From a virus (Duplodnaviria > Heunggongvirae > Uroviricota > Caudoviricetes): a stretch of DNA of 64,000 nucleotides. Below the pieces are notes generated by a model, which saw only the letters and a list, made by a program, of their open reading frames with translations, ran no database searches and was not told the origin of the DNA. Positions within the stretch are counted from its first letter, which is position 1. Each line of letters starts with the position of its first letter. The position numbers and the translations under genes were made by a program. Location: the IMG/VR virus record IMGVR_UViG_2651869695_000003. One strand, written 5' to 3'. Positions 11,117 to 33,828 of this stretch are shown here, one piece after another.

Positions 11117-11118
11117 GT

Positions 11119-11442: not shown

Positions 11443-11849
11443 AAATTCGTCAGGCGCAGACCAGCGCAACCTACATTCTGCCGGACCCCGGTGAACTGAA
11501 TAAACGCGTCCTGATCCGCCAGCGGGTGGATATGCCCGCGGATAACTTTGGCGTGGAGCCTCAATACCCGGTTACGTTCCGGACATGGGCGAAGGTTATC
11601 CAGACCAGTGCCACCACCTGGCAGGAAACCGCGCAGACCGGGGACGCCATCACCCATTACATCACCATTCGTTACCGCCGGGGGATCACCGCTGATTATG
11701 AGGTGGTCTGCGGTGACAGTGTGTACCGGGTGAAACGTCAGCGCGATCTGAACGGGGCGCGGCGCTTTCTGCTGCTGGAGTGTACGGAGCTGGGCGAATG
11801 TGGGCAGAGTCACGGAGGCAACAATGACGACTTCCTTTTTGCACGTTGA
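11439..11849 (+). CDS. Head closure / head-tail adaptor protein
   Basis: 136 aa, synteny. Confidence 0.5.
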   Translation: MKIRQAQTSATYILPDPGELNKRVLIRQRVDMPADNFGVEPQYPVTFRTWAKVIQTSATTWQETAQTGDAITHYITIRYRRGITADYEVVCGDSVYRVKRQRDLNGARRFLLLECTELGECGQSHGGNNDDFLFAR

Positions 11850-12330: not shown

Positions 12331-12887
12331 AACTGACGCCTGTTATTGCTGCACTGCGTGCCCGCTGTCCATATTTTGAAAACCGGGTTGCAGGCGCGGC
12401 CCAGTTCAAAAATCTGCCGGAGGTCGGAAAGCTGAAACTCCCGGCGGCATATGTTGTACCGGGTGATGATTCTCCGGGAGAAAACAAAAGCCAGACCGAC
12501 TACTGGCAGGAGCTGAAAGAGGGCTTCTCCGTGGTTGTCATACTGAGTAACGGGCGTGATGAGCGCGGTCAGTTTGCTTCGTATGATGTGGTGGACGATG
12601 TCCGGCAGATGCTCTTTAAGGCCCTGCTGGGCTGGAACCCGGAAGCGTGCGGTAACCCGATTAACTATGACGGCGGCACGCTGCTGGATCTGAATCGTCA
12701 TGAGCTGATTTATCAGTTCGATTTTTCGATCATCAGCGAGCTGACCGAAGACGATACCCGCCAGCAGGATGACCTGAACAGTCTGGATGAACTGCGAACG
12801 CTGGCGATTGATGTTGATTATCTCGATCCCGGTAACGGGCCTGACGGCGATATCGAACATCACACCGAAATAACCCTTCCTTCCTGA
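12327..12887 (+). CDS. Tail protein (Mu gp37-like, possible tail terminator)
   Basis: 186 aa directly upstream of sheath gene. Confidence 0.4.
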   Translation: MKLTPVIAALRARCPYFENRVAGAAQFKNLPEVGKLKLPAAYVVPGDDSPGENKSQTDYWQELKEGFSVVVILSNGRDERGQFASYDVVDDVRQMLFKALLGWNPEACGNPINYDGGTLLDLNRHELIYQFDFSIISELTEDDTRQQDDLNSLDELRTLAIDVDYLDPGNGPDGDIEHHTEITLPS

Positions 12888-13049
12888 GAATCTTCATGTT
12901 TGTGAAACCTGTTAAAGGGCGGTCAGTGCCTGACCCTGCCCGCGGTGACCTTTTGCCCGCCGAAGGGCGAAATGTTGACGAGAACAACTACTGGCTGCGC
13001 CGTGAAGCAGCGGGTGATATCCGGCGCGTGAATAAAAAGGTGAACACCG

Positions 13050-14546: not shown

Positions 14547-14902
14547 TGGCCCGTATCGGGGGAACCTGTTATTTCAAAATTGACGGTCAGCAGCTATCGC
14601 TGACCGGCGGCATTGAGGTGCCCATGAACAGGACGGTCAATGATGACATCATCGGCCTGGACGGTTCAGTGGACCGCAAGGAAACTCACCGTGCGCCTTA
14701 TGTCAAAGGGACCTTCAAGGTGCCGAAGAATTTTCCGGTGAGCAAAATCACCTCGTCTGATGAGATGACCATCACTGCCGAGCTGGCGAACGGTCAGGTC
14801 TATGTATTGTCGTCCGCCTGGCTGCACGGAGAAGCGAACCATAATGCCGAAGAAGGCACGGTTGATCTTGAGTTCCACGGTGAAGAAGGGGATTACCAGT
14901 AA
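14546..14902 (+). CDS. Tail tube protein
   Basis: 118 aa directly after sheath. Confidence 0.65.
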   Translation: MARIGGTCYFKIDGQQLSLTGGIEVPMNRTVNDDIIGLDGSVDRKETHRAPYVKGTFKVPKNFPVSKITSSDEMTITAELANGQVYVLSSAWLHGEANHNAEEGTVDLEFHGEEGDYQ

Positions 14903-15171
14903 TGAAAGAGCTTGAGTTAAAGAAACCGATTATCGCTCATGGTGAGACACTCTCCGTACTGGAGTTTGATGAACCCACCGGGAAGGATGTCCGCGAGCTG
15001 GGGTATCCCTACCAGATGAATCAGGATGAGTCCGTCAGACTTCTGGCGCATGTGGTGTCGAAATACATTGTGCGGCTGGCGAAAGTGCCGCAAAGCTCTG
15101 TCGACCAGATGTCTCCGGCAGACCTGAATGCAGCGGCGTGGCTTGTGGCTGGTTTTTTCCTCCAGGCCTGA
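14902..15171 (+). CDS. Tail assembly chaperone (extended to 15320 by -1 frameshift)
   Basis: 89-aa ORF overlapped by a -1 frame ORF (15138..15320) that runs into the tape measure start. Confidence 0.6.
   Translation: MKELELKKPIIAHGETLSVLEFDEPTGKDVRELGYPYQMNQDESVRLLAHVVSKYIVRLAKVPQSSVDQMSPADLNAAAWLVAGFFLQA
15153..15159 (+). other. Slippery heptamer T_TTT_TTC for -1 programmed frameshift
   Basis: Zero-frame codons GGT TTT TTC near end of chaperone ORF; -1 frame stays open to 15320. Confidence 0.5.
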
Positions 15172-15312
15172 CGGCTGAATACCTCACTGATCGCTTCTTT
15201 GACTGCGCCAGTTACTGGCGCATTAATCCCTTCGAATTGCTGAATATGCCGATCAGTGAAATTCCCTTGCTGGTCAGTCAGGCAAACAGGATAGAGCAGG
15301 AGAAACGCACAC

Positions 15313-17148
15313 ATGGCTGAATTTGAGCTTAAGGCGTTGATCACCGGTGTCGACAGGCTTTCTCCCGCGCTGTCGAAAATGCAAAAGAAAATCCGGGGAT
15401 TTAAACGCCAGGCGGAAGAAGCGTCACAGGGTGGGCTGGCGCTTGGTGGCGGACTGGCAGCGGGTCTGACGCTTTCCCTGAAATCTTATGCCGATCAGGA
15501 AAACGCCGCCACCGGGCTGAAAGTCGCCATGATGGATGCGAACGGCGAGGTTGGAAAGAGCTTTCAGGACATCAATAAACTGGCTATTGGCCTGGGTAAC
15601 CAGCTACCCGGTACAACGGCTGATTTCCAGAACATGATGCAGATGCTGGTGCGTCAGGGGATCCCGGCAGAAAACATTCTTGGTGGTGTGGGTAAAGCGA
15701 CAGCTTATCTTGCGGTACAACTGAAAAAAACACCGGAAGCGGCTGCTGAGTTTGCTGCAAAGATGCAGGATGCTACCGGAACGGCGTCAGAAGACATGAT
15801 GGGGCTGTTCGACACTATCCAGAAGGCGTTTTATCTGGGCGTTGATGATACCAACATGTTGTCCTTCTTCACTAAAACCAGTTCTGTTCTGAAAATGGTG
15901 AATAAGGACGGTCTTCAGGCTGCACAGAGTCTTGCCCCCATCAGTGTCATGATGGATCAGATGGGGATGAACGGGGAGTCGGCAGGTAATGCCCTGCGAA
16001 AAGTTATCCAGTCCGGATTAAGCGTTAAGAAAATCAGGGACGTCAATAAAATCATGGCCCGCCAGAAACTCGGGGTACAGCTCGATTTTACTGATGGCAA
16101 AGGGAGTTTTGGCGGTCTTGATAACATGTTCAGGCAACTGGCAAAGCTGCGAAAACTGACCGACGTTAAGCGAACCGGTGTACTTAAGGCAATATTTGGT
16201 GATGATGCCGAAACCCTTCAGGTGGTCAATGCGCTGATCGATAAAGGAAAGGATGGCTACGATCAGATCCAGCAGAAGATGAATAAACAGGCCAGCCTGA
16301 ATAAACGTGTTCAGGCTCAGCTTGGTACGCTGTCCAACCTGTGGGAGGCAATGACGGGGACCGCAACTAACGGCCTTGCGGCTATTGGCGGCGCATTTTC
16401 TGGTGACGCTAAAAATATCACGCAATGGCTGGGGGAGTTAGGGGAAAAATTCACGAAGTTTGCGGATGAAAATCCCCGGGTTATTCGCGGCGTCGTCGGG
16501 CTTGCTGCCGGTCTTGCGATTCTGAAACTGGGATTGATGGGCGTTGGCGGTGCCATCAGTATTGTCAGCAGGATCATGTCGATGACGCCGATTGGCATGA
16601 TTGCGACGGCGATAGCCCTGGCTGCGGGATTAATTATCACTAACTGGGATGTTGTCGGACCTTATTTTAAGAAACTCTGGGAAACCATTGGTCCTTATTT
16701 TGAGACTGGCTGGGAACTTCTTAAGAAGGTTTTTGCCTGGTCGCCGCTGGGGATGGTGATCAATAACTGGGGACCGGTTGTTAAGTGGTTTCAGGATATG
16801 TGGGACAAGCTGAAGCCAATTATTGAGTGGTTTACCGACAGTTCCGGTGACACGGTCGATGCCATTAACTCTGCGCAGTGGGGCGCGGGTGCTTATGATG
16901 CTTATGGGACGGGAATACCGGCGCGGGGATACACACCTTATCCGGCGGTAGATCCGGCTCAGTCAAACAACGCCTCCGATGCCACAGGCCTGAATCCCTT
17001 CATGATTAACAAAGCTTCTGCGCCAAAAGTTGATGGTGAGATCAAGGTCTCTTTTGTGAATTCGCCTCCGGGTATGCGGGTTATGGAAACGCGATCCAGC
17101 GGTTTTGATGTCAGCCATGATGTTGGCTATACGCGCTTTGGCAGGTAA
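15313..17148 (+). CDS. Tail tape measure protein
   Basis: 611 aa with Gly/Ala-rich and hydrophobic segments. Confidence 0.8.
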   Translation: MAEFELKALITGVDRLSPALSKMQKKIRGFKRQAEEASQGGLALGGGLAAGLTLSLKSYADQENAATGLKVAMMDANGEVGKSFQDINKLAIGLGNQLPGTTADFQNMMQMLVRQGIPAENILGGVGKATAYLAVQLKKTPEAAAEFAAKMQDATGTASEDMMGLFDTIQKAFYLGVDDTNMLSFFTKTSSVLKMVNKDGLQAAQSLAPISVMMDQMGMNGESAGNALRKVIQSGLSVKKIRDVNKIMARQKLGVQLDFTDGKGSFGGLDNMFRQLAKLRKLTDVKRTGVLKAIFGDDAETLQVVNALIDKGKDGYDQIQQKMNKQASLNKRVQAQLGTLSNLWEAMTGTATNGLAAIGGAFSGDAKNITQWLGELGEKFTKFADENPRVIRGVVGLAAGLAILKLGLMGVGGAISIVSRIMSMTPIGMIATAIALAAGLIITNWDVVGPYFKKLWETIGPYFETGWELLKKVFAWSPLGMVINNWGPVVKWFQDMWDKLKPIIEWFTDSSGDTVDAINSAQWGAGAYDAYGTGIPARGYTPYPAVDPAQSNNASDATGLNPFMINKASAPKVDGEIKVSFVNSPPGMRVMETRSSGFDVSHDVGYTRFGR

Positions 17149-17208
17149 TGAAAAATTAATCTGTTAATGAGTCCCACTCCGGTGGGATTTTTTATGTACG
17201 GAGTTTAT

Positions 17209-18537
17209 ATGACGTGGAAAGACAGACTTCAGGACGCGTCATTTCGCGGTGTGCCGTTTAAGGTTGAAGAAGAAAGTGCGGGAACCGGTCGTCGTGTGGA
17301 AACGCACGAATACCCGAACCGCGACAAACCCTATACCGAAGACCTGGGGAAAATCACTTTCCGCCCGTCCATCACGGCTTATGTGGTGGGAGATGACTGC
17401 TTTGACCAGCGCGATCGCCTGATTGACGCGCTGAATAAACCCGGTCCCGGCACGCTTGTCCATCCGACTTACGGTGAGCTGAAAGTCTGTGTTGACGGAG
17501 AGGTTCGGGTCAGCACATCGAAGAGTGAAGGGCGTATTGTCCGCTTTGACCTGAAGTTTGTCGAAGCGGGAGAACTCTCTTACCCCACATCAGGTGCGGC
17601 GACGGCGCAGACGCTGATGTCATCCTGTTCTGCACTGGATGACTGCATCAGTGACAGTTTCAGTAGTTTCAGTATCGATGGCGTGGCAGATTTTGTGCAG
17701 AACGACGTCGTCGGTAATGCCAGCACAATGCTTGGGTATGTTTCTGATGCGATGAAAGTGGTGGATTCTGCCGTATCGGATGCCGCCAGGCTGTTGCAGG
17801 GGGATATCTCGGTACTTCTGCCGCCGCCATCGTCAGGCAAAAATTTCGTTGAGCAGGTGCAGAAAATGTGGCGTACCGGGAAACGCCTTTATGGTAACGC
17901 CAGCGACCTGGTCACCATGATCAAAACGCTTTCCGGTGTCAGCCTCGGCAGCGATCTGCAACCGCGCGGCGTCTGGAAAACGGACAGTAAAACCACCGCC
18001 ACGGCTACGCAGCAGCGTAACGTGGTTGCCAGCACCCTTCGTACGACCGCAATCAGCGAAGCGGCGTATGCCGTCACCCGATTGCCTGCGCCAACAACTT
18101 CCGCGGTGATGCAGAATGCCGCAGTGGGGCAGGCAACAACACCTGCGCAGAGCACTGGCTGGCCTTCCGTCACGCATCCGGCACTGAACAATGCACCGGC
18201 GGTGAAAAACACAGTTGACCTGCCGACGTGGGAAGAACTGACTGACATTCGCGACACACTGAATACGGCAATTGATAAGGAGTTGTCCCGTACAACCAGT
18301 GATGCGCTGTTTCTGGCGCTGCGCCGGGTGAAAGCAGATCTGAATGCGGATATCAACACGCGCCTTGAACAGTCTGCACGGATCATTCAGCGCACGCCGG
18401 ATGAGGTTTTACCCGCGCTGGTGCTGGCGGCGACCTGGTTTGATAACGCGGCGCGTGACGCGGACATTATCCGGCGTAATGCCATTACGCATCCCGGCTT
18501 TGTGCCGGTGATCCCTCTGAAGGTGCCAGTGCAATGA
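17209..18537 (+). CDS. DNA circularisation-like tail protein (Mu N-like)
   Basis: Follows tape measure in Mu-like order; start set to internal Met with GGAG upstream. Confidence 0.55.
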   Translation: MTWKDRLQDASFRGVPFKVEEESAGTGRRVETHEYPNRDKPYTEDLGKITFRPSITAYVVGDDCFDQRDRLIDALNKPGPGTLVHPTYGELKVCVDGEVRVSTSKSEGRIVRFDLKFVEAGELSYPTSGAATAQTLMSSCSALDDCISDSFSSFSIDGVADFVQNDVVGNASTMLGYVSDAMKVVDSAVSDAARLLQGDISVLLPPPSSGKNFVEQVQKMWRTGKRLYGNASDLVTMIKTLSGVSLGSDLQPRGVWKTDSKTTATATQQRNVVASTLRTTAISEAAYAVTRLPAPTTSAVMQNAAVGQATTPAQSTGWPSVTHPALNNAPAVKNTVDLPTWEELTDIRDTLNTAIDKELSRTTSDALFLALRRVKADLNADINTRLEQSARIIQRTPDEVLPALVLAATWFDNAARDADIIRRNAITHPGFVPVIPLKVPVQ

Positions 18538-19613
18538 ACGATAACGTCACGCTACGGGTAAATGGCCGGGAGTGGAATGGCTGGACATCGGTGCGCATCG
18601 GTGCCGGTATTGAACGGCTGGCGCGGGATTTCAGTGTGGAGATCACTCGCCAGTGGCCGGGAGATGAGGGTATCACCACGCTTCAGCCGCGCATTAAAAA
18701 CGGTTCAAAAGTGGAAGTGCTGATTGGTGATGAGCTGGTGATCACCGGCTGGGTGGAGGCGACGCCCGTTCGGTACGATGCCCGTTCGGTCAGCACCGGT
18801 ATTGCCGGACGTAGTCTGACGGCTGACCTGATTGACTGTGCAGCCGAACCGACACAGTTTAACGGACGCTCGCTGGTGCAGATTGCGCAGGCGCTTGCTG
18901 CGCCTTTCGGCATTGAGGTGGTGAACAGCGGTGCGCCGTCGGGTGTTATTCCTGATGTTCAGCCTGATCACGGTGAAACGGTGATTGAGGTAATCAACAA
19001 AATACTCGGTCAGCAGCAGGCGCTGGCTTACGACGACCCGCACGGCAGGCTGGTGATTGGCGGTATTGGCTCAACGCGGGCACATACCGCGCTGGTACTT
19101 GGGGAAAACATCCTTTCCTGTGATACGGAGAAGAGTATCCGGGACCGGTTTTCTGTTTACCAGGTGGCGGGGCAGCGTGCCGGAAACGACGATGATTTCG
19201 GTGAGGCCACCACCACCGCGCTGCGGGCCCGCACAGAGGACGCATTTATTGCCCGTTACCGTCCGATGTATATCAGGCAGACAGGGCAGGCTACGGGGGC
19301 AGGCTGTATTGCGCGTGCTGACTTTGAAGCCCGGCAACGGGCGGCGCGGACGGATGAAACCACCTATGTGGTGCAGGGCTGGCGACAGGGTAACGGTACG
19401 CTGTGGCAACCCAACCAGCGGGTGATTGTCTTTGATCCGGTCTGTGGTTTTGACAATACCGAACTGCTTGTTTCGGAAGTCACGTTTACTCAGGACCAGA
19501 ACGGCACCCTGACGGAAATCCGTGTCGGCCCGCCTGATGCTTATCTGCCTGAACCTGAAGCCCCCGGCGCGCGGAAAAAGAAAAAAGCCAGAGTACAGGA
19601 GGACCCGTTCTGA
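18534..19613 (+). CDS. Baseplate hub protein (Mu P-like)
   Basis: 359 aa, Mu-like synteny. Confidence 0.55.
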   Translation: MNDNVTLRVNGREWNGWTSVRIGAGIERLARDFSVEITRQWPGDEGITTLQPRIKNGSKVEVLIGDELVITGWVEATPVRYDARSVSTGIAGRSLTADLIDCAAEPTQFNGRSLVQIAQALAAPFGIEVVNSGAPSGVIPDVQPDHGETVIEVINKILGQQQALAYDDPHGRLVIGGIGSTRAHTALVLGENILSCDTEKSIRDRFSVYQVAGQRAGNDDDFGEATTTALRARTEDAFIARYRPMYIRQTGQATGAGCIARADFEARQRAARTDETTYVVQGWRQGNGTLWQPNQRVIVFDPVCGFDNTELLVSEVTFTQDQNGTLTEIRVGPPDAYLPEPEAPGARKKKKARVQEDPF

Positions 19614-20161
19614 TGAGGACGATTGAAGCCATGCAGCGACAACTTCTCGGCCTGATTGGGCGGGCAGTGGTGAAAAGCATCAGTGCCGCCACGAAATGTC
19701 AGACCGTGGATGTGTCCCTGATTGCCGGTGAACCCAAAGCCGGGGTTGAACATCTTGAACCCTACGGTTTTACCGCAAGGGCAAACAGCGGTGCGGAAGC
19801 GGTGGTGTTGTTTCCGGATGGCGACCGTTCTCATGCGGTGGTTGTTACGGTGTCGGACCGGCGCTACCGCCTGAAAGGGCTGCAGACGGGTGAGGTGGCT
19901 GTCTATGACGATCAGGGGCAGTCTGTGACGCTGACCCGGGAGGGGATCGTGGTGGACGGTGCAGGTAAAACGATCACGTTTCGCAATGCGCCCAGAGCAC
20001 GTTTTGAAATGGACCTGGAAGTGACCGGACAGGTGAAAGACCTGTGCGACTCCGGCGGCACCACCATGTCAGCGATGCGGCTTGCCTATAACGGCCATTG
20101 TCACAGAGAGAACGGTCAGGGCAGTAACACCGACAAACCGGATAAAGCGATGGAGGCATGA
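19613..20161 (+). CDS. Baseplate spike / assembly protein V-like
   Basis: 182 aa, synteny. Confidence 0.55.
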   Translation: MRTIEAMQRQLLGLIGRAVVKSISAATKCQTVDVSLIAGEPKAGVEHLEPYGFTARANSGAEAVVLFPDGDRSHAVVVTVSDRRYRLKGLQTGEVAVYDDQGQSVTLTREGIVVDGAGKTITFRNAPRARFEMDLEVTGQVKDLCDSGGTTMSAMRLAYNGHCHRENGQGSNTDKPDKAMEA

Positions 20162-20586
20162 TGGAACTGTGGCTGACGGTGAACGGTAAACGCACCTGCG
20201 CCAGCGCACCGCTGGATCCGCTGACCCGCGCCGTGGTGATTTCCCTGTTTACCTGGCGGCGGGCGGAGCCTGATGACAATGCCGACGTCCCGATGGGATG
20301 GTGGGGGGATACCTGGCCTGCGGTACAGAATGACCGTTACGGCTCCCGGCTGTGGCTGCTTCAGCGCGGCAAACTGACCAATCAGCTGGTGCAGACGGTA
20401 AGGGGGTATATCCGCGAATGCCTGCAATGGATGATTGATGACGGTGTGGTGTCCCGTATTGATCTGGATATCCGCCGCACCGGGATTAATGAACTGGGTA
20501 ACAGTATCACTCTCTGGCGTCGTGACGGACCGGTAATGATTTCTTTTGATGATCTGTGGAGTGCGATAACGCATGGCGGACAGTGA
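20158..20586 (+). CDS. Baseplate protein (gpW/gp25-like)
   Basis: 142 aa, synteny. Confidence 0.5.
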   Translation: MMELWLTVNGKRTCASAPLDPLTRAVVISLFTWRRAEPDDNADVPMGWWGDTWPAVQNDRYGSRLWLLQRGKLTNQLVQTVRGYIRECLQWMIDDGVVSRIDLDIRRTGINELGNSITLWRRDGPVMISFDDLWSAITHGGQ

Positions 20587-21631
20587 ATTTCAGCGCCCGA
20601 CGCTGGCAGAAAATATCAGTATGCTCCGTAACGATTTATTCGCCAGGCTGGACGTCAGCGACACGCTCCGGCGCATGGATGAAGACGTGCGGGCAAAGGT
20701 GTATGCGGCGGCGCTGCATACGGTTTACGGTTACATCGATTATCTGGCAATGAACATGCTGCCTGACCTGTGCGATGAGTCCTGGCTGGCGAGACATGCT
20801 GCGATGAAACGGTGTCCGCGCAAGGGGGCCACGTCTGCCAGCGGGTATATGCGCTGGGAAGGTGTCAGCGATGGCCTGAAGGTGACCGCCGGGAGTGTTA
20901 TTCAGCGCGATGATCTGGTTCAGTACACGGCAACTTCTGATGCAACCAGCTCAGGTGGAGTCCTGCGCGTGCCGATCGCCTGCTCAACTGCAGGCGCGGT
21001 CGGTAACGCTGACGACGGTACGGCATTAATCCTGGTCACGCCGGTGAATGGTCTGCCGTCTTCCGGTGTGGCAGATACCCTGACTGGCGGATTCGATACT
21101 GAAGATCTGGAAACGTGGCGCGCCCGCGTCATTGAGCGGTATTACTGGACGCCGCAGGGCGGGGCTGACGGGGACTATGTCGTCTGGGCTAAAGAAGTGC
21201 CCGGCATTACCCGCGCATGGACATACCGTCACTGGATGGGAACGGGGACTGTCGGTGTGATGATTGCCGGCAGTGACCTGATTAATCCCATTCCGGAAGA
21301 ATCAACGGAAACGGCGGCAAGACAACATATCGGGCCACTGGCCCCGGTGGCAGGCTCTGATTTGTATGTGTTCAGGCCGGCGGCGCATACGGTGGATTTT
21401 CATATCCGCGTGACGCCGGACACACCAGAAATACGGGCTGCCATTACCGCGGAGTTGCGTTCGTTCCTGCTGCGTGATGGTTATCCGCAGGGAGAACTGA
21501 AGGTATCGCGTATCAGTGAGGCGATTTCCGGTGCGAACGGGGAATACAGCCATCAATTGCTTGCACCGGCGGACAATATCTCCATTGCAAAAAATGAACT
21601 GGCGGTTCTGGGGACGATTTCATGGACGTGA
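20573..21631 (+). CDS. Baseplate J-like protein
   Basis: 352 aa, synteny before tail fibre genes. Confidence 0.65.
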
Positions 21632-22206
21632 CAAACGATGATTACATCCGTCTGTTGTCGGCACTGCTGCCGCCCGGTCCGGCGTGGTCAGCCAGCGATC
21701 CGGCGATTGCCGGTACGGCACCGTCATTAACCCGTGTTCATCAGCGTGCGGATGCCCTGATGCGGGAGCTGGATCCGCGCACCACCACCGAACTGATAAA
21801 CCGCTGGGAGCGTCTGTGCGGCCTGCCGGATGAATGTATTCCTACAGGGACACAGACCCTTCGCCAGCGCCAGCAACGGCTGGATGCGAAGGTTAACCTG
21901 TCGGGTGGCATCAACGAGGATTTTTATCTTGCACAGCTTGCTGCCCTGGGCAGACCAGATGCTACCATCACGCGATACGACAAAAGCACGTTCACCTGCT
22001 CATCGGCCTGTACTGACGCGGTGAATGCGCCGGAATGGCGGTATTACTGGCAGATCAACATGCCAGCCGCCACCAACACCACCTGGATGACATGTGGCGA
22101 TCCCTGTGATTCCGCACTGCGTATCTGGGGCGACACCGTTGTCGAATGTGTGCTTAACAAACTCTGCCCGTCGCATACCTACGTAATTTTTAAATATCCG
22201 GAGTAA
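21622..22206 (+). CDS. Tail protein (Mu gp48-like)
   Basis: 194 aa immediately upstream of tail fibre. Confidence 0.5.
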
Positions 22207-22209
22207 TCC

Positions 22210-23193
22210 ATGCATCGTATAGACACGAAAACCGCGCAGAAGGATAAGTTCGGCGCGGGTAAGAACGGTTTTACCCGTGGTAACCCCCAGACCGGCACAC
22301 CTGCCACCGATCTTGATGATGACTACTTTGATATGTTGCAGGAAGAACTCTGCAGCGTGGTGGAGGCATCCGGTGCCAGCCTGGAGAAGGGGCGGCATGA
22401 CCAGCTGCTTACCGCGCTTCGTGCGCTGCTGTTAAGCCGCAAGAATCCGTTTAGCGATATCAAATCGGATGGCACGGTGAAAACGGCTCTCGAAAACCTT
22501 GGTTTGGGAGAAGCCAGATTCTCTGGTCGTTTGTTAAACACGAATATTTTTAAAAGCTCTGGAAAATATATCCCAACACTAGGGACAAAAAAGATAAGGG
22601 TCATTGCCTCTGGTGGCGGTGGCGGCGGCGGTGGGGTTCCTGAAACAACAGAAAATCAGCAGGCAACAGCCGGAGCTGGATTGAGCGGTGCATTTATTGA
22701 AGCATTTTTCGAGGTTGATAATGATTTCGAAGTCAACGTTATTATCGGTGCTGCAGGTAAAGGGGGGGGAGCCGGAAGAAATTCAGGTAGTGAAGGTGGC
22801 ACAACTTATTTCGGTTCCCTGATAACTGCACCGGGTGGTACAGGCGGTGGCGCGGGGGGAGCATCTGCAAACACATCATATATTCAGGGTATTTCATGGG
22901 GTGCCAGTCCGACATCGTCCGGTACTGTACTAAGAGCATTTCGCTGTAGTGCAAAAACACCAGGAGCAATGGTTATCTCTGTTAAAGCTGTTGCAGGTGG
23001 TACCGGGGGGGATACACCACTAGGTTCAGGCGGTATAGGTGGTGCAAGTTCTTCATCATTCAGCGGACGTGGTGGTGGTAAAGCTGAGGGCTTTGGTGCT
23101 GGCGGAGGCGGAGCCTGCGCACCTGCCGGAAGTGAGGCTCAATCGGGAGGTGACGGTGCCCCGGGAATAGTTATTGTTGAGGAGTATGCCTGA
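22210..23193 (+). CDS. Tail fibre protein, variant A (shared N-terminal 102 aa + Gly-rich C-terminal domain)
   Basis: N-terminus identical to 23844..24506 through ...LGLGEA, then unique Gly-rich C-terminus. Confidence 0.7.
22487..22512. other. gix/hix-like 26-bp recombination site (left)
   Basis: CTCTCGAAAACC-TT-GGTTTGGGAGAA: imperfect 12-bp dyad half-sites around a 2-bp core; ends 2 bp before the arms diverge. Confidence 0.45.
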
Positions 23194-23456
23194 TGAGTAA
23201 TTTTGCTCTGATTGAACATGGCGTGGTGAAAAATATTATTATCTGGGATGGAGAGGGTGATTTATTCTCTAACTGCGAAATTATAAATATTGATCATATA
23301 GATGCAGGCGTCGGTTGGTTCTATTCTGACGGAGAGTTTATAGCACCACCGGAACCGGAAATGACTGAATATGATGTTGGTAATATCGACGCGGTGATGG
23401 AATCAGATACCAGCACCGCGCCGGACGTCATCTGGCCTGAACTGCCGGAGGCGTAG
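23193..23456 (+). CDS. Tail fibre assembly chaperone A
   Basis: 87-aa acidic ORF directly after fibre A, ending ...WPELPEA. Confidence 0.5.
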   Translation: MSNFALIEHGVVKNIIIWDGEGDLFSNCEIINIDHIDAGVGWFYSDGEFIAPPEPEMTEYDVGNIDAVMESDTSTAPDVIWPELPEA

Positions 23457-23847
23457 GCCATTCAATATCTGGCGCACCGGAAGTATCGACCAGTTCCAGT
23501 GCGTCCAGGTAATCCAGCCACAAATTATATTGCGCCAGTTCCTCACCTTTCAGACGACCAATAGCGGCTTTACCAGGCCATTGCTTACTGTTCATGTATT
23601 CGTTGGCCTGTTCAATAAGTATACTTTTCATTCCCTCCGCTTCAGCTATTTCCTGTTCCTGTGTCTTCGCTGGATATTCAGTAAGTACAGGGTAGTTATC
23701 CGGATTATTGATAATAATTTTCCCCGTACTCTGACCATTCATAAGTTCATAATAAAGAGCATCTTCAATATCGAAAGCATCATCGGGAATATCGCTGTTA
23801 TTTTCAGAGAAAAATCCCTGAACAGATGGGGACCATTTCATTTTCAT
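23428..23847 (-). CDS. Tail fibre assembly protein B (Tfa family)
   Basis: 139 aa; C-terminal region typical of Tfa chaperones; convergent with and overlapping chaperone A by ~29 bp. Confidence 0.7.
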
Positions 23848-24506
23848 AATTTCCCAATTCCTAAAATGTGGACATCATCAGCCTTACGGGCATTCCAGGT
23901 GACAATTACATCGGTAGAGTGACGATTAACTGAGATTGCATATGCTTCGTTAGTCGAGCCAGAAACTTTTGTAGCAAACACAGCAAACAGGACACCAAAT
24001 GACTGGGGCCATTTATAGCCTGACAGCTGATAATTACCATTATTCAGTGTTACAGCTTTGGCTGCTGCACTTGATGGAATCGTCAGCCACTGAAGTATCA
24101 ACCCTCCTGGCAAAAGTTGTTTTCCGTAATAATCCCTCACCCCACTAAATGAAGCCATGTCCGGTATCTGATTTTCCCCTGTTCCCACATTTCGTTTTGC
24201 CGCTTCTCCCAAACCAAGGTTTTCGAGAGCCGTTTTCACCGTGCCATCCGATTTGATATCGCTAAACGGATTCTTGCGGCTTAACAGCAGCGCACGAAGC
24301 GCGGTAAGCAGCTGGTCATGCCGCCCCTTCTCCAGGCTGGCACCGGATGCCTCCACCACGCTGCAGAGTTCTTCCTGCAACATATCAAAGTAGTCATCAT
24401 CAAGATCGGTGGCAGGTGTGCCGGTCTGGGGGTTACCACGGGTAAAACCGTTCTTACCCGCGCCGAACTTATCCTTCTGCGCGGTTTTCGTGTCTATACG
24501 ATGCAT
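23844..24506 (-). CDS. Tail fibre protein, variant B (shared N-terminal 102 aa + alternative 118-aa C-terminal domain)
   Basis: Same N-terminus as fibre A, diverging exactly at the gix-like site. Confidence 0.7.
24204..24229. other. gix/hix-like 26-bp recombination site (right, inverted)
   Basis: TTCTCCCAAACC-AA-GGTTTTCGAGAG, reverse complement of the left site. Confidence 0.45.
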
Positions 24507-24509
24507 GGA

Positions 24510-25094
24510 TTACTCCGGATATTTAAAAATTACGTAGGTATGCGACGGGCAGAGTTTGTTAAGCACACATTCGACAACGGTGTCGCCCCAGATACGCAGT
24601 GCGGAATCACAGGGATCGCCACATGTCATCCAGGTGGTGTTGGTGGCGGCTGGCATGTTGATCTGCCAGTAATACCGCCATTCCGGCGCATTCACCGCGT
24701 CAGTACAGGCCGATGAGCAGGTGAACGTGCTTTTGTCGTATCGCGTGATGGTAGCATCTGGTCTGCCCAGGGCAGCAAGCTGTGCAAGATAAAAATCCTC
24801 GTTGATGCCACCCGACAGGTTAACCTTCGCATCCAGCCGTTGCTGGCGCTGGCGAAGGGTCTGTGTCCCTGTAGGAATACATTCATCCGGCAGGCCGCAC
24901 AGACGCTCCCAGCGGTTTATCAGTTCGGTGGTGGTGCGCGGATCCAGCTCCCGCATCAGGGCATCCGCACGCTGATGAACACGGGTTAATGACGGTGCCG
25001 TACCGGCAATCGCCGGATCGCTGGCTGACCACGCCGGACCGGGCGGCAGCAGTGCCGACAACAGACGGATGTAATCATCGTTTGTCACGTCCAT
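24510..25094 (-). CDS. Tail protein (Mu gp48-like), right-arm copy
   Basis: Translation identical to 21622..22206. Confidence 0.5.
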
Positions 25095-26143
25095 GAAATC
25101 GTCCCCAGAACCGCCAGTTCATTTTTTGCAATGGAGATATTGTCCGCCGGTGCAAGCAATTGATGGCTGTATTCCCCGTTCGCACCGGAAATCGCCTCAC
25201 TGATACGCGATACCTTCAGTTCTCCCTGCGGATAACCATCACGCAGCAGGAACGAACGCAACTCCGCGGTAATGGCAGCCCGTATTTCTGGTGTGTCCGG
25301 CGTCACGCGGATATGAAAATCCACCGTATGCGCCGCCGGCCTGAACACATACAAATCAGAGCCTGCCACCGGGGCCAGTGGCCCGATATGTTGTCTTGCC
25401 GCCGTTTCCGTTGATTCTTCCGGAATGGGATTAATCAGGTCACTGCCGGCAATCATCACACCGACAGTCCCCGTTCCCATCCAGTGACGGTATGTCCATG
25501 CGCGGGTAATGCCGGGCACTTCTTTAGCCCAGACGACATAGTCCCCGTCAGCCCCGCCCTGCGGCGTCCAGTAATACCGCTCAATGACGCGGGCGCGCCA
25601 CGTTTCCAGATCTTCAGTATCGAATCCGCCAGTCAGGGTATCTGCCACACCGGAAGACGGCAGACCATTCACCGGCGTGACCAGGATTAATGCCGTACCG
25701 TCGTCAGCGTTACCGACCGCGCCTGCAGTTGAGCAGGCGATCGGCACGCGCAGGACTCCACCTGAGCTGGTTGCATCAGAAGTTGCCGTGTACTGAACCA
25801 GATCATCGCGCTGAATAACACTCCCGGCGGTCACCTTCAGGCCATCGCTGACACCTTCCCAGCGCATATACCCGCTGGCAGACGTGGCCCCCTTGCGCGG
25901 ACACCGTTTCATCGCAGCATGTCTCGCCAGCCAGGACTCATCGCACAGGTCAGGCAGCATGTTCATTGCCAGATAATCGATGTAACCGTAAACCGTATGC
26001 AGCGCCGCCGCATACACCTTTGCCCGCACGTCTTCATCCATGCGCCGGAGCGTGTCGCTGACGTCCAGCCTGGCGAATAAATCGTTACGGAGCATACTGA
26101 TATTTTCTGCCAGCGTCGGGCGCTGAAATTCACTGTCCGCCAT
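25085..26143 (-). CDS. Baseplate J-like protein, right-arm copy
   Basis: Translation identical to 20573..21631. Confidence 0.65.
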
Positions 26144-26558
26144 GCGTTATCGCACTCCACAGATCATCAAAAGAAATCATTACCGGTCCGTCACGACGCC
26201 AGAGAGTGATACTGTTACCCAGTTCATTAATCCCGGTGCGGCGGATATCCAGATCAATACGGGACACCACACCGTCATCAATCATCCATTGCAGGCATTC
26301 GCGGATATACCCCCTTACCGTCTGCACCAGCTGATTGGTCAGTTTGCCGCGCTGAAGCAGCCACAGCCGGGAGCCGTAACGGTCATTCTGTACCGCAGGC
26401 CAGGTATCCCCCCACCATCCCATCGGGACGTCGGCATTGTCATCAGGCTCCGCCCGCCGCCAGGTAAACAGGGAAATCACCACGGCGCGGGTCAGCGGAT
26501 CCAGCGGTGCGCTGGCGCAGGTGCGTTTACCGTTCACCGTCAGCCACAGTTCCATCAT
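26130..26558 (-). CDS. Baseplate protein (gpW/gp25-like), right-arm copy
   Basis: Translation identical to 20158..20586. Confidence 0.5.
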   Translation of the reverse strand: MMELWLTVNGKRTCASAPLDPLTRAVVISLFTWRRAEPDDNADVPMGWWGDTWPAVQNDRYGSRLWLLQRGKLTNQLVQTVRGYIRECLQWMIDDGVVSRIDLDIRRTGINELGNSITLWRRDGPVMISFDDLWSAITHGGQ

Positions 26559-27103
26559 GCCTCCATCGCTTTATCCGGTTTGTCGGTGTTACTGCCCTGA
26601 CCGTTCTCTCTGTGACAATGGCCGTTATAGGCAAGCCGCATCGCTGACATGGTGGTGCCGCCGGAGTCGCACAGGTCTTTCACCTGTCCGGTCACTTCCA
26701 GGTCCATTTCAAAACGTGCTCTGGGCGCATTGCGAAACGTGATCGTTTTACCTGCACCGTCCACCACGATCCCCTCCCGGGTCAGCGTCACAGACTGCCC
26801 CTGATCGTCATAGACAGCCACCTCACCCGTCTGCAGCCCTTTCAGGCGGTAGCGCCGGTCCGACACCGTAACAACCACCGCATGAGAACGGTCGCCATCC
26901 GGAAACAACACCACCGCTTCCGCACCGCTGTTTGCCCTTGCGGTAAAACCGTAGGGTTCAAGATGTTCAACCCCGGCTTTGGGTTCACCGGCAATCAGGG
27001 ACACATCCACGGTCTGACATTTCGTGGCGGCACTGATGCTTTTCACCACTGCCCGCCCAATCAGGCCGAGAAGTTGTCGCTGCATGGCTTCAATCGTCCT
27101 CAT
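26555..27103 (-). CDS. Baseplate spike / V-like protein, right-arm copy
   Basis: Translation identical to 19613..20161. Confidence 0.55.
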   Translation of the reverse strand: MRTIEAMQRQLLGLIGRAVVKSISAATKCQTVDVSLIAGEPKAGVEHLEPYGFTARANSGAEAVVLFPDGDRSHAVVVTVSDRRYRLKGLQTGEVAVYDDQGQSVTLTREGIVVDGAGKTITFRNAPRARFEMDLEVTGQVKDLCDSGGTTMSAMRLAYNGHCHRENGQGSNTDKPDKAMEA

Positions 27104-28182
27104 CAGAACGGGTCCTCCTGTACTCTGGCTTTTTTCTTTTTCCGCGCGCCGGGGGCTTCAGGTTCAGGCAGATAAGCATCAGGCGGGCCGACACGGATTT
27201 CCGTCAGGGTGCCGTTCTGGTCCTGAGTAAACGTGACTTCCGAAACAAGCAGTTCGGTATTGTCAAAACCACAGACCGGATCAAAGACAATCACCCGCTG
27301 GTTGGGTTGCCACAGCGTACCGTTACCCTGTCGCCAGCCCTGCACCACATAGGTGGTTTCATCCGTCCGCGCCGCCCGTTGCCGGGCTTCAAAGTCAGCA
27401 CGCGCAATACAGCCTGCCCCCGTAGCCTGCCCTGTCTGCCTGATATACATCGGACGGTAACGGGCAATAAATGCGTCCTCTGTGCGGGCCCGCAGCGCGG
27501 TGGTGGTGGCCTCACCGAAATCATCGTCGTTTCCGGCACGCTGCCCCGCCACCTGGTAAACAGAAAACCGGTCCCGGATACTCTTCTCCGTATCACAGGA
27601 AAGGATGTTTTCCCCAAGTACCAGCGCGGTATGTGCCCGCGTTGAGCCAATACCGCCAATCACCAGCCTGCCGTGCGGGTCGTCGTAAGCCAGCGCCTGC
27701 TGCTGACCGAGTATTTTGTTGATTACCTCAATCACCGTTTCACCGTGATCAGGCTGAACATCAGGAATAACACCCGACGGCGCACCGCTGTTCACCACCT
27801 CAATGCCGAAAGGCGCAGCAAGCGCCTGCGCAATCTGCACCAGCGAGCGTCCGTTAAACTGTGTCGGTTCGGCTGCACAGTCAATCAGGTCAGCCGTCAG
27901 ACTACGTCCGGCAATACCGGTGCTGACCGAACGGGCATCGTACCGAACGGGCGTCGCCTCCACCCAGCCGGTGATCACCAGCTCATCACCAATCAGCACT
28001 TCCACTTTTGAACCGTTTTTAATGCGCGGCTGAAGCGTGGTGATACCCTCATCTCCCGGCCACTGGCGAGTGATCTCCACACTGAAATCCCGCGCCAGCC
28101 GTTCAATACCGGCACCGATGCGCACCGATGTCCAGCCATTCCACTCCCGGCCATTTACCCGTAGCGTGACGTTATCGTTCAT
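27103..28182 (-). CDS. Baseplate hub protein, right-arm copy
   Basis: Translation identical to 18534..19613. Confidence 0.55.
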   Translation of the reverse strand: MNDNVTLRVNGREWNGWTSVRIGAGIERLARDFSVEITRQWPGDEGITTLQPRIKNGSKVEVLIGDELVITGWVEATPVRYDARSVSTGIAGRSLTADLIDCAAEPTQFNGRSLVQIAQALAAPFGIEVVNSGAPSGVIPDVQPDHGETVIEVINKILGQQQALAYDDPHGRLVIGGIGSTRAHTALVLGENILSCDTEKSIRDRFSVYQVAGQRAGNDDDFGEATTTALRARTEDAFIARYRPMYIRQTGQATGAGCIARADFEARQRAARTDETTYVVQGWRQGNGTLWQPNQRVIVFDPVCGFDNTELLVSEVTFTQDQNGTLTEIRVGPPDAYLPEPEAPGARKKKKARVQEDPF

Positions 28183-29507
28183 TGCACTGGCACCTTCAGA
28201 GGGATCACCGGCACAAAGCCGGGATGCGTAATGGCATTACGCCGGATAATGTCCGCGTCACGCGCCGCGTTATCAAACCAGGTCGCCGCCAGCACCAGCG
28301 CGGGTAAAACCTCATCCGGCGTGCGCTGAATGATCCGTGCAGACTGTTCAAGGCGCGTGTTGATATCCGCATTCAGATCTGCTTTCACCCGGCGCAGCGC
28401 CAGAAACAGCGCATCACTGGTTGTACGGGACAACTCCTTATCAATTGCCGTATTCAGTGTGTCGCGAATGTCAGTCAGTTCTTCCCACGTCGGCAGGTCA
28501 ACTGTGTTTTTCACCGCCGGTGCATTGTTCAGTGCCGGATGCGTGACGGAAGGCCAGCCAGTGCTCTGCGCAGGTGTTGTTGCCTGCCCCACTGCGGCAT
28601 TCTGCATCACCGCGGAAGTTGTTGGCGCAGGCAATCGGGTGACGGCATACGCCGCTTCGCTGATTGCGGTCGTACGAAGGGTGCTGGCAACCACGTTACG
28701 CTGCTGCGTAGCCGTGGCGGTGGTTTTACTGTCCGTTTTCCAGACGCCGCGCGGTTGCAGATCGCTGCCGAGGCTGACACCGGAAAGCGTTTTGATCATG
28801 GTGACCAGGTCGCTGGCGTTACCATAAAGGCGTTTCCCGGTACGCCACATTTTCTGCACCTGCTCAACGAAATTTTTGCCTGACGATGGCGGCGGCAGAA
28901 GTACCGAGATATCCCCCTGCAACAGCCTGGCGGCATCCGATACGGCAGAATCCACCACTTTCATCGCATCAGAAACATACCCAAGCATTGTGCTGGCATT
29001 ACCGACGACGTCGTTCTGCACAAAATCTGCCACGCCATCGATACTGAAACTACTGAAACTGTCACTGATGCAGTCATCCAGTGCAGAACAGGATGACATC
29101 AGCGTCTGCGCCGTCGCCGCACCTGATGTGGGGTAAGAGAGTTCTCCCGCTTCGACAAACTTCAGGTCAAAGCGGACAATACGCCCTTCACTCTTCGATG
29201 TGCTGACCCGAACCTCTCCGTCAACACAGACTTTCAGCTCACCGTAAGTCGGATGGACAAGCGTGCCGGGACCGGGTTTATTCAGCGCGTCAATCAGGCG
29301 ATCGCGCTGGTCAAAGCAGTCATCTCCCACCACATAAGCCGTGATGGACGGGCGGAAAGTGATTTTCCCCAGGTCTTCGGTATAGGGTTTGTCGCGGTTC
29401 GGGTATTCGTGCGTTTCCACACGACGACCGGTTCCCGCACTTTCTTCTTCAACCTTAAACGGCACACCGCGAAATGACGCGTCCTGAAGTCTGTCTTTCC
29501 ACGTCAT
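28179..29507 (-). CDS. DNA circularisation-like tail protein, right-arm copy
   Basis: Translation identical to 17209..18537. Confidence 0.55.
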   Translation of the reverse strand: MTWKDRLQDASFRGVPFKVEEESAGTGRRVETHEYPNRDKPYTEDLGKITFRPSITAYVVGDDCFDQRDRLIDALNKPGPGTLVHPTYGELKVCVDGEVRVSTSKSEGRIVRFDLKFVEAGELSYPTSGAATAQTLMSSCSALDDCISDSFSSFSIDGVADFVQNDVVGNASTMLGYVSDAMKVVDSAVSDAARLLQGDISVLLPPPSSGKNFVEQVQKMWRTGKRLYGNASDLVTMIKTLSGVSLGSDLQPRGVWKTDSKTTATATQQRNVVASTLRTTAISEAAYAVTRLPAPTTSAVMQNAAVGQATTPAQSTGWPSVTHPALNNAPAVKNTVDLPTWEELTDIRDTLNTAIDKELSRTTSDALFLALRRVKADLNADINTRLEQSARIIQRTPDEVLPALVLAATWFDNAARDADIIRRNAITHPGFVPVIPLKVPVQ

Positions 29508-29567
29508 ATAAACTCCGTACATAAAAAATCCCACCGGAGTGGGACTCATTAACAGATTAATTTTTCA

Positions 29568-31403
29568 TTACCTGCCAAAGCGCGTATAGCCAACATCATG
29601 GCTGACATCAAAACCGCTGGATCGCGTTTCCATAACCCGCATACCCGGAGGCGAATTCACAAAAGAGACCTTGATCTCACCATCAACTTTTGGCGCAGAA
29701 GCTTTGTTAATCATGAAGGGATTCAGGCCTGTGGCATCGGAGGCGTTGTTTGACTGAGCCGGATCTACCGCCGGATAAGGTGTGTATCCCCGCGCCGGTA
29801 TTCCCGTCCCATAAGCATCATAAGCACCCGCGCCCCACTGCGCAGAGTTAATGGCATCGACCGTGTCACCGGAACTGTCGGTAAACCACTCAATAATTGG
29901 CTTCAGCTTGTCCCACATATCCTGAAACCACTTAACAACCGGTCCCCAGTTATTGATCACCATCCCCAGCGGCGACCAGGCAAAAACCTTCTTAAGAAGT
30001 TCCCAGCCAGTCTCAAAATAAGGACCAATGGTTTCCCAGAGTTTCTTAAAATAAGGTCCGACAACATCCCAGTTAGTGATAATTAATCCCGCAGCCAGGG
30101 CTATCGCCGTCGCAATCATGCCAATCGGCGTCATCGACATGATCCTGCTGACAATACTGATGGCACCGCCAACGCCCATCAATCCCAGTTTCAGAATCGC
30201 AAGACCGGCAGCAAGCCCGACGACGCCGCGAATAACCCGGGGATTTTCATCCGCAAACTTCGTGAATTTTTCCCCTAACTCCCCCAGCCATTGCGTGATA
30301 TTTTTAGCGTCACCAGAAAATGCGCCGCCAATAGCCGCAAGGCCGTTAGTTGCGGTCCCCGTCATTGCCTCCCACAGGTTGGACAGCGTACCAAGCTGAG
30401 CCTGAACACGTTTATTCAGGCTGGCCTGTTTATTCATCTTCTGCTGGATCTGATCGTAGCCATCCTTTCCTTTATCGATCAGCGCATTGACCACCTGAAG
30501 GGTTTCGGCATCATCACCAAATATTGCCTTAAGTACACCGGTTCGCTTAACGTCGGTCAGTTTTCGCAGCTTTGCCAGTTGCCTGAACATGTTATCAAGA
30601 CCGCCAAAACTCCCTTTGCCATCAGTAAAATCGAGCTGTACCCCGAGTTTCTGGCGGGCCATGATTTTATTGACGTCCCTGATTTTCTTAACGCTTAATC
30701 CGGACTGGATAACTTTTCGCAGGGCATTACCTGCCGACTCCCCGTTCATCCCCATCTGATCCATCATGACACTGATGGGGGCAAGACTCTGTGCAGCCTG
30801 AAGACCGTCCTTATTCACCATTTTCAGAACAGAACTGGTTTTAGTGAAGAAGGACAACATGTTGGTATCATCAACGCCCAGATAAAACGCCTTCTGGATA
30901 GTGTCGAACAGCCCCATCATGTCTTCTGACGCCGTTCCGGTAGCATCCTGCATCTTTGCAGCAAACTCAGCAGCCGCTTCCGGTGTTTTTTTCAGTTGTA
31001 CCGCAAGATAAGCTGTCGCTTTACCCACACCACCAAGAATGTTTTCTGCCGGGATCCCCTGACGCACCAGCATCTGCATCATGTTCTGGAAATCAGCCGT
31101 TGTACCGGGTAGCTGGTTACCCAGGCCAATAGCCAGTTTATTGATGTCCTGAAAGCTCTTTCCAACCTCGCCGTTCGCATCCATCATGGCGACTTTCAGC
31201 CCGGTGGCGGCGTTTTCCTGATCGGCATAAGATTTCAGGGAAAGCGTCAGACCCGCTGCCAGTCCGCCACCAAGCGCCAGCCCACCCTGTGACGCTTCTT
31301 CCGCCTGGCGTTTAAATCCCCGGATTTTCTTTTGCATTTTCGACAGCGCGGGAGAAAGCCTGTCGACACCGGTGATCAACGCCTTAAGCTCAAATTCAGC
31401 CAT
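29568..31403 (-). CDS. Tail tape measure protein, right-arm copy
   Basis: Translation identical to 15313..17148. Confidence 0.8.
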   Translation of the reverse strand: MAEFELKALITGVDRLSPALSKMQKKIRGFKRQAEEASQGGLALGGGLAAGLTLSLKSYADQENAATGLKVAMMDANGEVGKSFQDINKLAIGLGNQLPGTTADFQNMMQMLVRQGIPAENILGGVGKATAYLAVQLKKTPEAAAEFAAKMQDATGTASEDMMGLFDTIQKAFYLGVDDTNMLSFFTKTSSVLKMVNKDGLQAAQSLAPISVMMDQMGMNGESAGNALRKVIQSGLSVKKIRDVNKIMARQKLGVQLDFTDGKGSFGGLDNMFRQLAKLRKLTDVKRTGVLKAIFGDDAETLQVVNALIDKGKDGYDQIQQKMNKQASLNKRVQAQLGTLSNLWEAMTGTATNGLAAIGGAFSGDAKNITQWLGELGEKFTKFADENPRVIRGVVGLAAGLAILKLGLMGVGGAISIVSRIMSMTPIGMIATAIALAAGLIITNWDVVGPYFKKLWETIGPYFETGWELLKKVFAWSPLGMVINNWGPVVKWFQDMWDKLKPIIEWFTDSSGDTVDAINSAQWGAGAYDAYGTGIPARGYTPYPAVDPAQSNNASDATGLNPFMINKASAPKVDGEIKVSFVNSPPGMRVMETRSSGFDVSHDVGYTRFGR

Positions 31404-31544
31404 GTGTGCGTTTCTCCTGCTCTATCCTGTTTGCCTGACTGACCAGCAAGGGAATTTCACTGATCGGCATATTCAGCAATTCGAAGGGATTAATGCGCCA
31501 GTAACTGGCGCAGTCAAAGAAGCGATCAGTGAGGTATTCAGCCG

Positions 31545-31814
31545 TCAGGCCTGGAGGAAAAAACCAGCCACAAGCCACGCCGCTGCATTCAGGTCTGCCG
31601 GAGACATCTGGTCGACAGAGCTTTGCGGCACTTTCGCCAGCCGCACAATGTATTTCGACACCACATGCGCCAGAAGTCTGACGGACTCATCCTGATTCAT
31701 CTGGTAGGGATACCCCAGCTCGCGGACATCCTTCCCGGTGGGTTCATCAAACTCCAGTACGGAGAGTGTCTCACCATGAGCGATAATCGGTTTCTTTAAC
31801 TCAAGCTCTTTCAT
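31545..31814 (-). CDS. Tail assembly chaperone, right-arm copy (frameshift extension to 31396)
   Basis: Translation identical to 14902..15171; slippery site mirrored at ~31557..31563. Confidence 0.6.
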   Translation of the reverse strand: MKELELKKPIIAHGETLSVLEFDEPTGKDVRELGYPYQMNQDESVRLLAHVVSKYIVRLAKVPQSSVDQMSPADLNAAAWLVAGFFLQA

Positions 31815-32170
31815 TACTGGTAATCCCCTTCTTCACCGTGGAACTCAAGATCAACCGTGCCTTCTTCGGCATTATGGTTCGCTTCTCCGTGCAGCCAGGC
31901 GGACGACAATACATAGACCTGACCGTTCGCCAGCTCGGCAGTGATGGTCATCTCATCAGACGAGGTGATTTTGCTCACCGGAAAATTCTTCGGCACCTTG
32001 AAGGTCCCTTTGACATAAGGCGCACGGTGAGTTTCCTTGCGGTCCACTGAACCGTCCAGGCCGATGATGTCATCATTGACCGTCCTGTTCATGGGCACCT
32101 CAATGCCGCCGGTCAGCGATAGCTGCTGACCGTCAATTTTGAAATAACAGGTTCCCCCGATACGGGCCAT
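31814..32170 (-). CDS. Tail tube protein, right-arm copy
   Basis: Translation identical to 14546..14902. Confidence 0.65.
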   Translation of the reverse strand: MARIGGTCYFKIDGQQLSLTGGIEVPMNRTVNDDIIGLDGSVDRKETHRAPYVKGTFKVPKNFPVSKITSSDEMTITAELANGQVYVLSSAWLHGEANHNAEEGTVDLEFHGEEGDYQ

Positions 32171-33666: not shown

Positions 33667-33828
33667 CGGTGTTCACCTTTTTATTCACGCGCCGGATATC
33701 ACCCGCTGCTTCACGGCGCAGCCAGTAGTTGTTCTCGTCAACATTTCGCCCTTCGGCGGGCAAAAGGTCACCGCGGGCAGGGTCAGGCACTGACCGCCCT
33801 TTAACAGGTTTCACAAACATGAAGATTC

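Follow-up and report, generated by a model that had tools for sequence, protein, structure and literature searches.

The 64,000-bp stretch of DNA analysed here (the window) carries an invertible tail-fibre segment of the Din family, and this segment is of the type of the P segment of e14 in E. coli K-12. The crossover sites, the logic of the reading frames, the convergent modules and both orientations are all found, and only the adjacent invertase is missing from the window. The sequence-only reading had described this as an orphan switch. We consider it very likely that what is really present is an SfV/e14-like prophage of E. coli with an ordinary P segment of the e14 type, and that the missing invertase is an assembly artefact. 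The contig is palindromic, and a second left arm is found where the invertase belongs, which is why the gene is missing. This mirrored arm makes the whole arrangement suspect.

Crossover sites and fibre modules

The sequence-only reading had proposed a 26-bp crossover site at the end of the constant fibre region, with the same site inverted on the far side of the cassette. The proposed sequence, CTCTCGAAAACCTTGGTTTGGGAGAA, is indeed present at 22487-22512, and its reverse complement is present at 24204-24229. The site is composed of an outer half (CTCTCGAAAACC), a TT core (22499-22500) and an inner half (GGTTTGGGAGAA). Its assignment to the Din family (as gix/hix-like) was correct and can be made more exact: by sequence identity, this is the pix site of e14 itself. 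The left-hand site is base-for-base the pixL of K-12 e14 (L010 3279-3304, inside stfP). The two sites of the window are inverted relative to each other, each has two 12-bp half-sites around a 2-bp core, and the cores match (TT/AA). The positions of all features are listed in Table 1.

Table 1. Features of the palindromic contig and of its central fibre cassette (window coordinates).
Feature	Position	Strand	Remarks
Short arm, mirror copy of the prophage late region	1..22514	+	starts at the contig end
Fibre gene, P(+) state, 327 aa	22210..23193	+	constant aa 1-102 and Gly-rich tip aa 103-327
pixL crossover site	22487..22512	+	identical to the site inside K-12 e14 stfP; on the fibre side in natural loci
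Unique centre, interior of the invertible P-type segment	22515..24201		1,687 bp; only non-mirrored DNA between the arms
87-aa ORF	23193..23456	+	follows the Gly-rich tip; putative assembly factor for it
Tail fibre assembly protein (Tfa), cognate to the alternative tip, 139 aa	23428..23847	-	Pfam Caudo_TAP, phrog_188
Fibre gene, P(-) state, 220 aa	23844..24506	-	mirror-copy constant N-terminus and 118-aa alternative tip
Long arm, late region reversed	24202..46715	-	continuous with the early region
Second pixL copy, with fibre-side outer half	24204..24229	-	in the place expected for the native pixR
Rest of the same prophage	46716..57349	-	unmirrored within the contig

The right-hand site requires a closer look. 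In K-12 e14, the native pixR is found beside pinE and reads, from the outside inward, TTTTCATAAACG-TT-GGTTTGGGAGAA (in full, TTTTCATAAACGTTGGTTTGGG; the pixR junction sequence is ATTTGCTCGTTATTTCTGCATTTTCATAAACGTTGGTTTGGGAGAA). Natural relatives of the cassette also have the K-12 pixR sequence. The exact repeat that exists in nature is only 16 bp long (TTGGTTTGGGAGAAGC in this cassette) and comprises the core, the inner half-site and two bases. The length agrees with a published description of the e14 P segment, in which the inverted repeats have 16 bp (PMC12529663). The right-hand copy in the window has the sequence that had been claimed for it, but it does not constitute an independent site. 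The two 26-bp sites form the inner ends of a perfect inverted repeat (see below), and the right-hand site is, judged by this sequence, the duplicated left site and not the native right site. Further pix-like sites were sought in the window, and none were found beyond these two; a multi-segment shufflon was rejected on the result of this search.

The constant N-terminus of the fibre (aa 1-102) ends in the site, and two convergent modules, each with a tip and a chaperone, are encoded between the sites; in both respects, the description in the earlier reading was accurate, and the ORFs were recovered where it had placed them. Identity between the 327-aa and 220-aa ORFs extends over aa 1-102 and is lost immediately past the site. 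The crossover takes place within the fibre reading frame, so that each orientation results in a full-length fibre with its own C-terminus, followed by its own small ORF or Tfa. The unique centre holds both variable tips and both small ORFs, and it is seen in either orientation in natural loci.

The 327-aa fibre matches PHROG tail-fibre families and carries the NCBI name "phage tail protein". Its Gly-rich tip matches the Pfam family Gly_rich_2 (E 4.3e-7, above the curated cut-off). For the 87-aa ORF, there are only weak matches, one to Caudo_TAP (confined to the C-terminal 19 aa, E 0.0055, below the cut-off) and one to phrog_3792 (4.8e-4). It is its position that makes this ORF the presumed cognate assembly factor of the Gly-rich tip. 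The 139-aa Tfa matches Caudo_TAP (Pfam, E 2.6e-23) and phrog_188 (E 2.3e-51) and is named "tail fiber assembly protein" in RefSeq relatives. The 118-aa alternative tip has a weak match to Gp53-like_C (Pfam). The same 220-aa protein is encoded in two draft contigs, L008 and L009 (see below), where it is the expressed fusion. When both fibres were used in a sequence search against the PDB, the constant part had a weak match to the Mu tail fibre S (E about 0.01), and no match was obtained for either tip. As a side observation, the exact 327-aa fusion is also encoded on one other NCBI contig, which is 20-50 kb long.

In the Gin, Hin, Cin and Pin systems, invertase dimers are bound at two 26-bp sites, which are brought together with a Fis-bound enhancer. 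Both strands are cut at the 2-bp core, and this is followed by rotation and religation. A Fis-dependent recombinational enhancer in the 5' part of the invertase gene is known for hin, gin and cin; the window, with no invertase gene, cannot contain one of this kind. By analogy, PinE would bind the two 26-bp pix sites, cut at the 2-bp core and flip about 1.7 kb. The constant 102-aa N-terminus would then be joined either to the Gly-rich tip (with the 87-aa ORF) or to the 118-aa tip (with the 139-aa Tfa). Such a flip would exchange the receptor-binding tip together with its assembly factor.

Mirror-image arms and the place of the invertase

Positions 1-22514 of the window are the exact reverse complement of positions 24202-46715, with 0 mismatches in 22,514 bp. 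Nothing but the left edge of the window limits this inverted repeat. The window corresponds to bases 26-64025 of the draft WGS contig JHST01000046.1 (64,025 bp) from assembly GCA_001266115.1. Contig bases 1-25 also mirror the window (46716-46740), and the repeat reaches 22,539 bp, up to contig base 1. The first 12,422 contig bases were compared with the mirrored stretch of the long arm, and all of them match (12,422/12,422). The duplicated arm stops at the contig boundary, and no junction with unique DNA is present. A switch in the sign of the GC skew at the centre is a trivial result of the mirror structure.

The short arm codes for a DUF968 fragment, Q, lysis, terminase, head, tail and baseplate proteins, YmfQ and the constant part of the fibre; tail sheath and tube and the tape measure are among the products of the duplicated late region. 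The arms belong to the SfV/e14-like prophage family, as found from annotated E. coli genomes and phages (with ymfQ, stfP, tfaE and pinE annotations). Beyond the long arm, the region 46716-57349 contains the rest of the DUF968 gene, KilA-N, RusA, replication and regulatory genes, the S24 repressor and yfdPQR. It includes the integrase gene (56177-57349).

The earlier statement that no serine recombinase is encoded in the window was confirmed by tblastn with PinE, for which the best match had an E-value of 4.6. With E-values up to 10 allowed, the search of the 64-kb window returned a single spurious match of 20 aa. A gene with Resolvase and HTH_7 domains beside the segment is thus absent from the window, and it is present in L008, a contig of a different assembly with essentially the same prophage (arm 100.000% identical over 10,305 bp). 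The arm and the flipped cassette of L008 match window positions 34506-22494 over 12,013 bp, with 1 mismatch, which is inside the site. Within the right-hand site, L008 parts from the window, and 55 bp past the cassette it reaches pinE. Where L008 departs, the window itself continues with the constant fibre region in reverse complement. The invertase encoded by L008 has 184 aa, is 95% identical to PinE of K-12 e14 and matches the Mu Gin structures 3uj3 and 4m6f (E about 1e-93). Its gene is followed by a LEM-3-like GIY-YIG gene, dcm, an EcoRII-like gene and smpB.

The comparison was extended to 15 natural loci. These are from RefSeq chromosomes (L001-L003), draft contigs (L008 and L009) and ten long contigs (L016-L025), each of the latter ten with the identical 87-aa ORF. 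In all 15, one outer half-site is of the fibre type and the other of the invertase type, the latter being TTTTCATAAACG or a variant of it; the window alone has two fibre-type outer halves. Correspondingly, the window has both of the alternative fibre-side junctions and neither of the invertase-side junctions. The end on the fibre side is the Gly-rich one in 6 of the 15 natural loci and the other one in the remaining 9, so both states of the switch are common. On long contigs, the identical cassette was examined in ten independent contexts, and an adjacent invertase was found in each of them (10/10), as well as in the RefSeq records L001-L004 and in K-12. Wherever gene calls or annotation exist for a natural locus, the invertase adjoins the invertase-type half-site and has 184-197 aa, except that in L023 it is a 124-aa fragment. 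The suggested orphan switch, with a distant invertase or as a fossil, is not borne out, given pinE in the isogenic L008 and an invertase in each of the ten contexts. The other suggestion of the sequence-only reading, that the invertase had been replaced by the mirrored arm, fits the sequence; the replacement, however, most likely happened in the assembly and not in the cell.

Three kinds of backbone carry the cassette (SfV/e14-like, P2-like, and a Wedge1/sheath-initiator type). In the collection, 1,040 indexed blocks contain the 87-aa ORF, and a cluster of 57 members has been recorded for the cargo. The palindromic arrangement was sought in 5,426 complete E. coli genomes with the arm and the cassette as queries, and it was seen at none of the best places listed. 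With the arm as query, a single forward arm was found at every best place listed; this collection is without the source of the window, and its best relatives are about 98% identical. The normal arrangement is found in L008, L009 and 13 other loci, all from independent assemblies. Three features of a folded-back contig are seen together: the arms are base-identical, the duplication ends at the contig boundary, and the arrangement is not found in the independent assemblies examined.

Probable origin of the fold-back and alternative explanations

The second junction of the window is exact and gap-free, and L008 and L009 have the identical sequence at their natural P(-) junction. Normal k-mer or overlap graphs do not collapse a repeat as short as 16 bp, so the second fibre-side junction should have been present in the reads. 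From this we infer that the sequenced culture probably contained both orientations. Active flipping of the switch in that culture is suggested by the presence of both fibre-side junctions in a single contig. The assembler would have passed from the arm through the cassette and then, instead of taking the pinE branch, back along the same arm in reverse complement. Cells with the segment flipped do contain the junction that the fold-back would have used. The flank with pinE and attR would be expected on another contig of GCA_001266115.1.

There are precedents for both parts of this explanation. The two orientations of e14 coexist in clonal cultures, as was found by read mapping and PCR (PMC4272514). 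In E. coli EC958, inversion of a tail-fibre segment gave spurious contigs, and the authors warned of "artefactual duplications in phage regions" (PMC4134206). The PacBio assembly of that strain is similar to the present case in that inversion, which was frequent in the sequenced culture, gave reads of both orientations, by which the assembler was confused (PMC4134206). It differs in that the alternative allele was obtained as separate contigs of 8.7-12.7 kb (PMC4134206), whereas here it is found within one contig, as a 22.5-kb fold-back. A fold-back is an unusual outcome; many assemblers break at such a cassette. This is seen from the index, where the cassette is held solely on contigs under 2 kb in 554 of the 1,040 blocks. 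A random fold-back chimera, as arises from amplification or long-read adapters, was rejected, because the turn-around is exactly at two pix sites and encloses a complete cassette.

A variant of the artefact explanation does without a mixed culture. A scaffolder, a gap-closer or a reference-guided procedure would have made the misjoin from cells with one orientation. One documented case of reference-guided misordering of E. coli prophage regions is NA114 (PMC4134206). We regard this variant as improbable. The gap-free junction is the natural P(-) junction and extends over the 16-bp repeat, which is hard to obtain without real reads.

Taken by itself, the contig is also compatible with a physical inverted duplication. 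It would have arisen by an intermolecular, Pin-catalysed exchange of pixL on one chromosome copy with pixR on a sister copy or on a replicating phage genome, with loss of pinE. An exchange of pixL with the pixR of a second, antiparallel copy predicts two fibre-type outer halves and no pinE, and this is what is found; the contig has no Ns, and its junctions are clean. If this were correct, pinE would have been deleted, a giant inverted duplication, with the switch at its centre, would be locked in, and the molecule would have been abundant in the sequenced DNA. We consider this very unlikely on several grounds. Din invertases such as Hin and Gin need the enhancer and the two sites to be on the same supercoiled molecule, so that intermolecular reactions are strongly disfavoured. 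A chromosomal product would be dicentric or acentric and thus not heritable. The outer junction of the duplication is absent; the arm just ends at the contig end. Two identical arms of 22.5 kb are beyond what a short-read draft can resolve independently. Finally, the structure was seen in no natural locus examined.

A genuine orphan or fossil switch has about as little to recommend it and is scarcely probable. The invertase in cis would have been lost, and a Pin-family invertase from elsewhere would act on the segment, or switching would have ceased. This would explain why the 64-kb window encodes no invertase, and inversion in trans has been documented. PinQ and PinR invert the e14 P segment in trans (PMC12529663), and prophage Phi4 of EC958, in which the invertase is truncated, has a segment that is inverted in trans (PMC4134206). 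However, loss of pinE should have left pixR and the downstream DNA, or a deletion scar. Instead, the outer half of the right-hand site is the wrong one for a native pixR. Loss of pinE also leaves unexplained the base-perfect 22.5-kb mirror of the upstream arm, which ends at the contig boundary, and the isogenic prophage in L008 does have pinE. From the structure of the contig and the comparison with relatives, it is thus highly probable that the "orphan" status is an artefact of the draft assembly.

Comparison with known switches and implications

The closest system is the P segment of e14 in K-12 (stfP-tfaP / tfaE-stfE), which is inverted by PinE. It shares the 26-bp site on the fibre side, and its invertase-side site is identical in the natural relatives of the cassette. 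As in K-12 e14, YmfQ and the constant N-terminus of the fibre are encoded upstream, and there are two convergent modules of a tip and a chaperone, in which the 3' ends of the chaperone genes overlap. The segments differ somewhat in size, with about 1.7 kb here versus 1,797 bp in K-12 e14 (PMC12529663). They also differ in cargo, which here consists of the Gly_rich_2 tip with the 87-aa ORF and the 118-aa tip with the 139-aa Tfa, whereas K-12 e14 has StfP/TfaP and StfE/TfaE. The host prophage is a complete SfV-like myovirus genome in the present case and a remnant in K-12. K-12 e14 has pinE and pixR, whereas the window is devoid of both, owing to the mirrored assembly.

The G segment of Mu (Gin) and the C segment of P1 (Cin) have the same general layout. 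The invertase is encoded beside the segment, the crossover is within the fibre gene, and tips are swapped together with their chaperones (Sv-U / Sv'-U'). Both use 26-bp sites with a 2-bp core. They differ from the segment described here in having other fibre proteins and other site sequences. The G segment has 3 kb, compared to about 1.7 kb for the cassette in the window, and the C segment has 0.6-kb repeats.

The biology of this switch is already known, and nothing about it is new. Even the cargo variant is already widespread and annotated. The analysis thus adds little to biology, and its value is practical. Invertible segments can fold draft contigs back on themselves, and switches then wrongly appear as orphans, duplications are simulated and invertases go missing. 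When genomes are scanned for such elements, inverted repeats need to be checked for their true extent and for whether they reach the contig end.

Backbones that carry the cassette

The identical invertible cassette, recognized by the same 87-aa ORF, occurs on three unrelated prophage backbones among ten long contigs (L016-L025) and the chromosomal locus L003. An invertase adjoins the cassette every time, whichever the backbone. This suggests that cassette and invertase travel together as one module. In one SfV-like locus (L018), the outer half-site on the invertase side is strongly divergent (ATATTTGAAAGG), and the invertase beside the cassette has 187 aa rather than 184 aa. Here, the same cassette may be served by another Din-family invertase.

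Features and their coordinates
Feature	Location	Strand	Remark
Cassette	~5300-7040 in each of L016-L025		backbone varies
Backbone type 1			SfV/e14-like
Backbone type 2			P2-like; fibre-side outer half-site TTCTCGCATACC
Backbone type 3			Phage_Wedge1/Sheath_initiator
Site with divergent invertase-side outer half	L018 5295-5320		
Fused fibre gene	L001 5210-6190 (NZ_LR882050.1)		
87-aa ORF	window 23193-23456		
Overlap of 87-aa and 139-aa ORFs	window 23428-23456		
Low-GC stretch	window 54000-58300		GC 0.37-0.39
Prophage integrase	window 56177-57349		
IS100 (IS21-family) istA/istB pair	window 58582-60381	-	directly outside prophage

Fibre gene and small ORFs

The 87-aa and 139-aa ORFs are convergent, and their 3' ends overlap by 29 bp. 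In e14 of K-12, tfaP and tfaE are likewise convergent with overlapping 3' ends. The likeness of the 87-aa ORF to Tfa proteins is confined to the last ~20 residues. The fusion of the constant fibre part to the Gly-rich tip can escape automated annotation, as illustrated by a RefSeq chromosome (L001), where the fused gene is called a pseudogene, a truncated stfP that stops at the pix site, and the tip is devoid of annotation.

Integrase end of the prophage

A low-GC stretch, which includes a YfbR/HD-like gene, adjoins the integrase and may be accessory or defence cargo. A Pfam search with two ORFs from this stretch (296 aa and 272 aa) gave no match. The IS100 pair lies just outside the prophage, and the flanking 6.6 kb show 99.4-99.7% identity to mobile-element regions of E2348/69-like genomes.

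Cassette on short contigs

According to the index statistics for the 87-aa ORF, 554 of the 1,040 collection blocks (index units holding this ORF) have the cassette solely on contigs of less than 2 kb. Such a distribution suggests that the two pix sites are break points in most short-read assemblies, which leave the 1.7-kb segment as a lone contig. It is indirect evidence that cultures taken for sequencing commonly contain both orientations.
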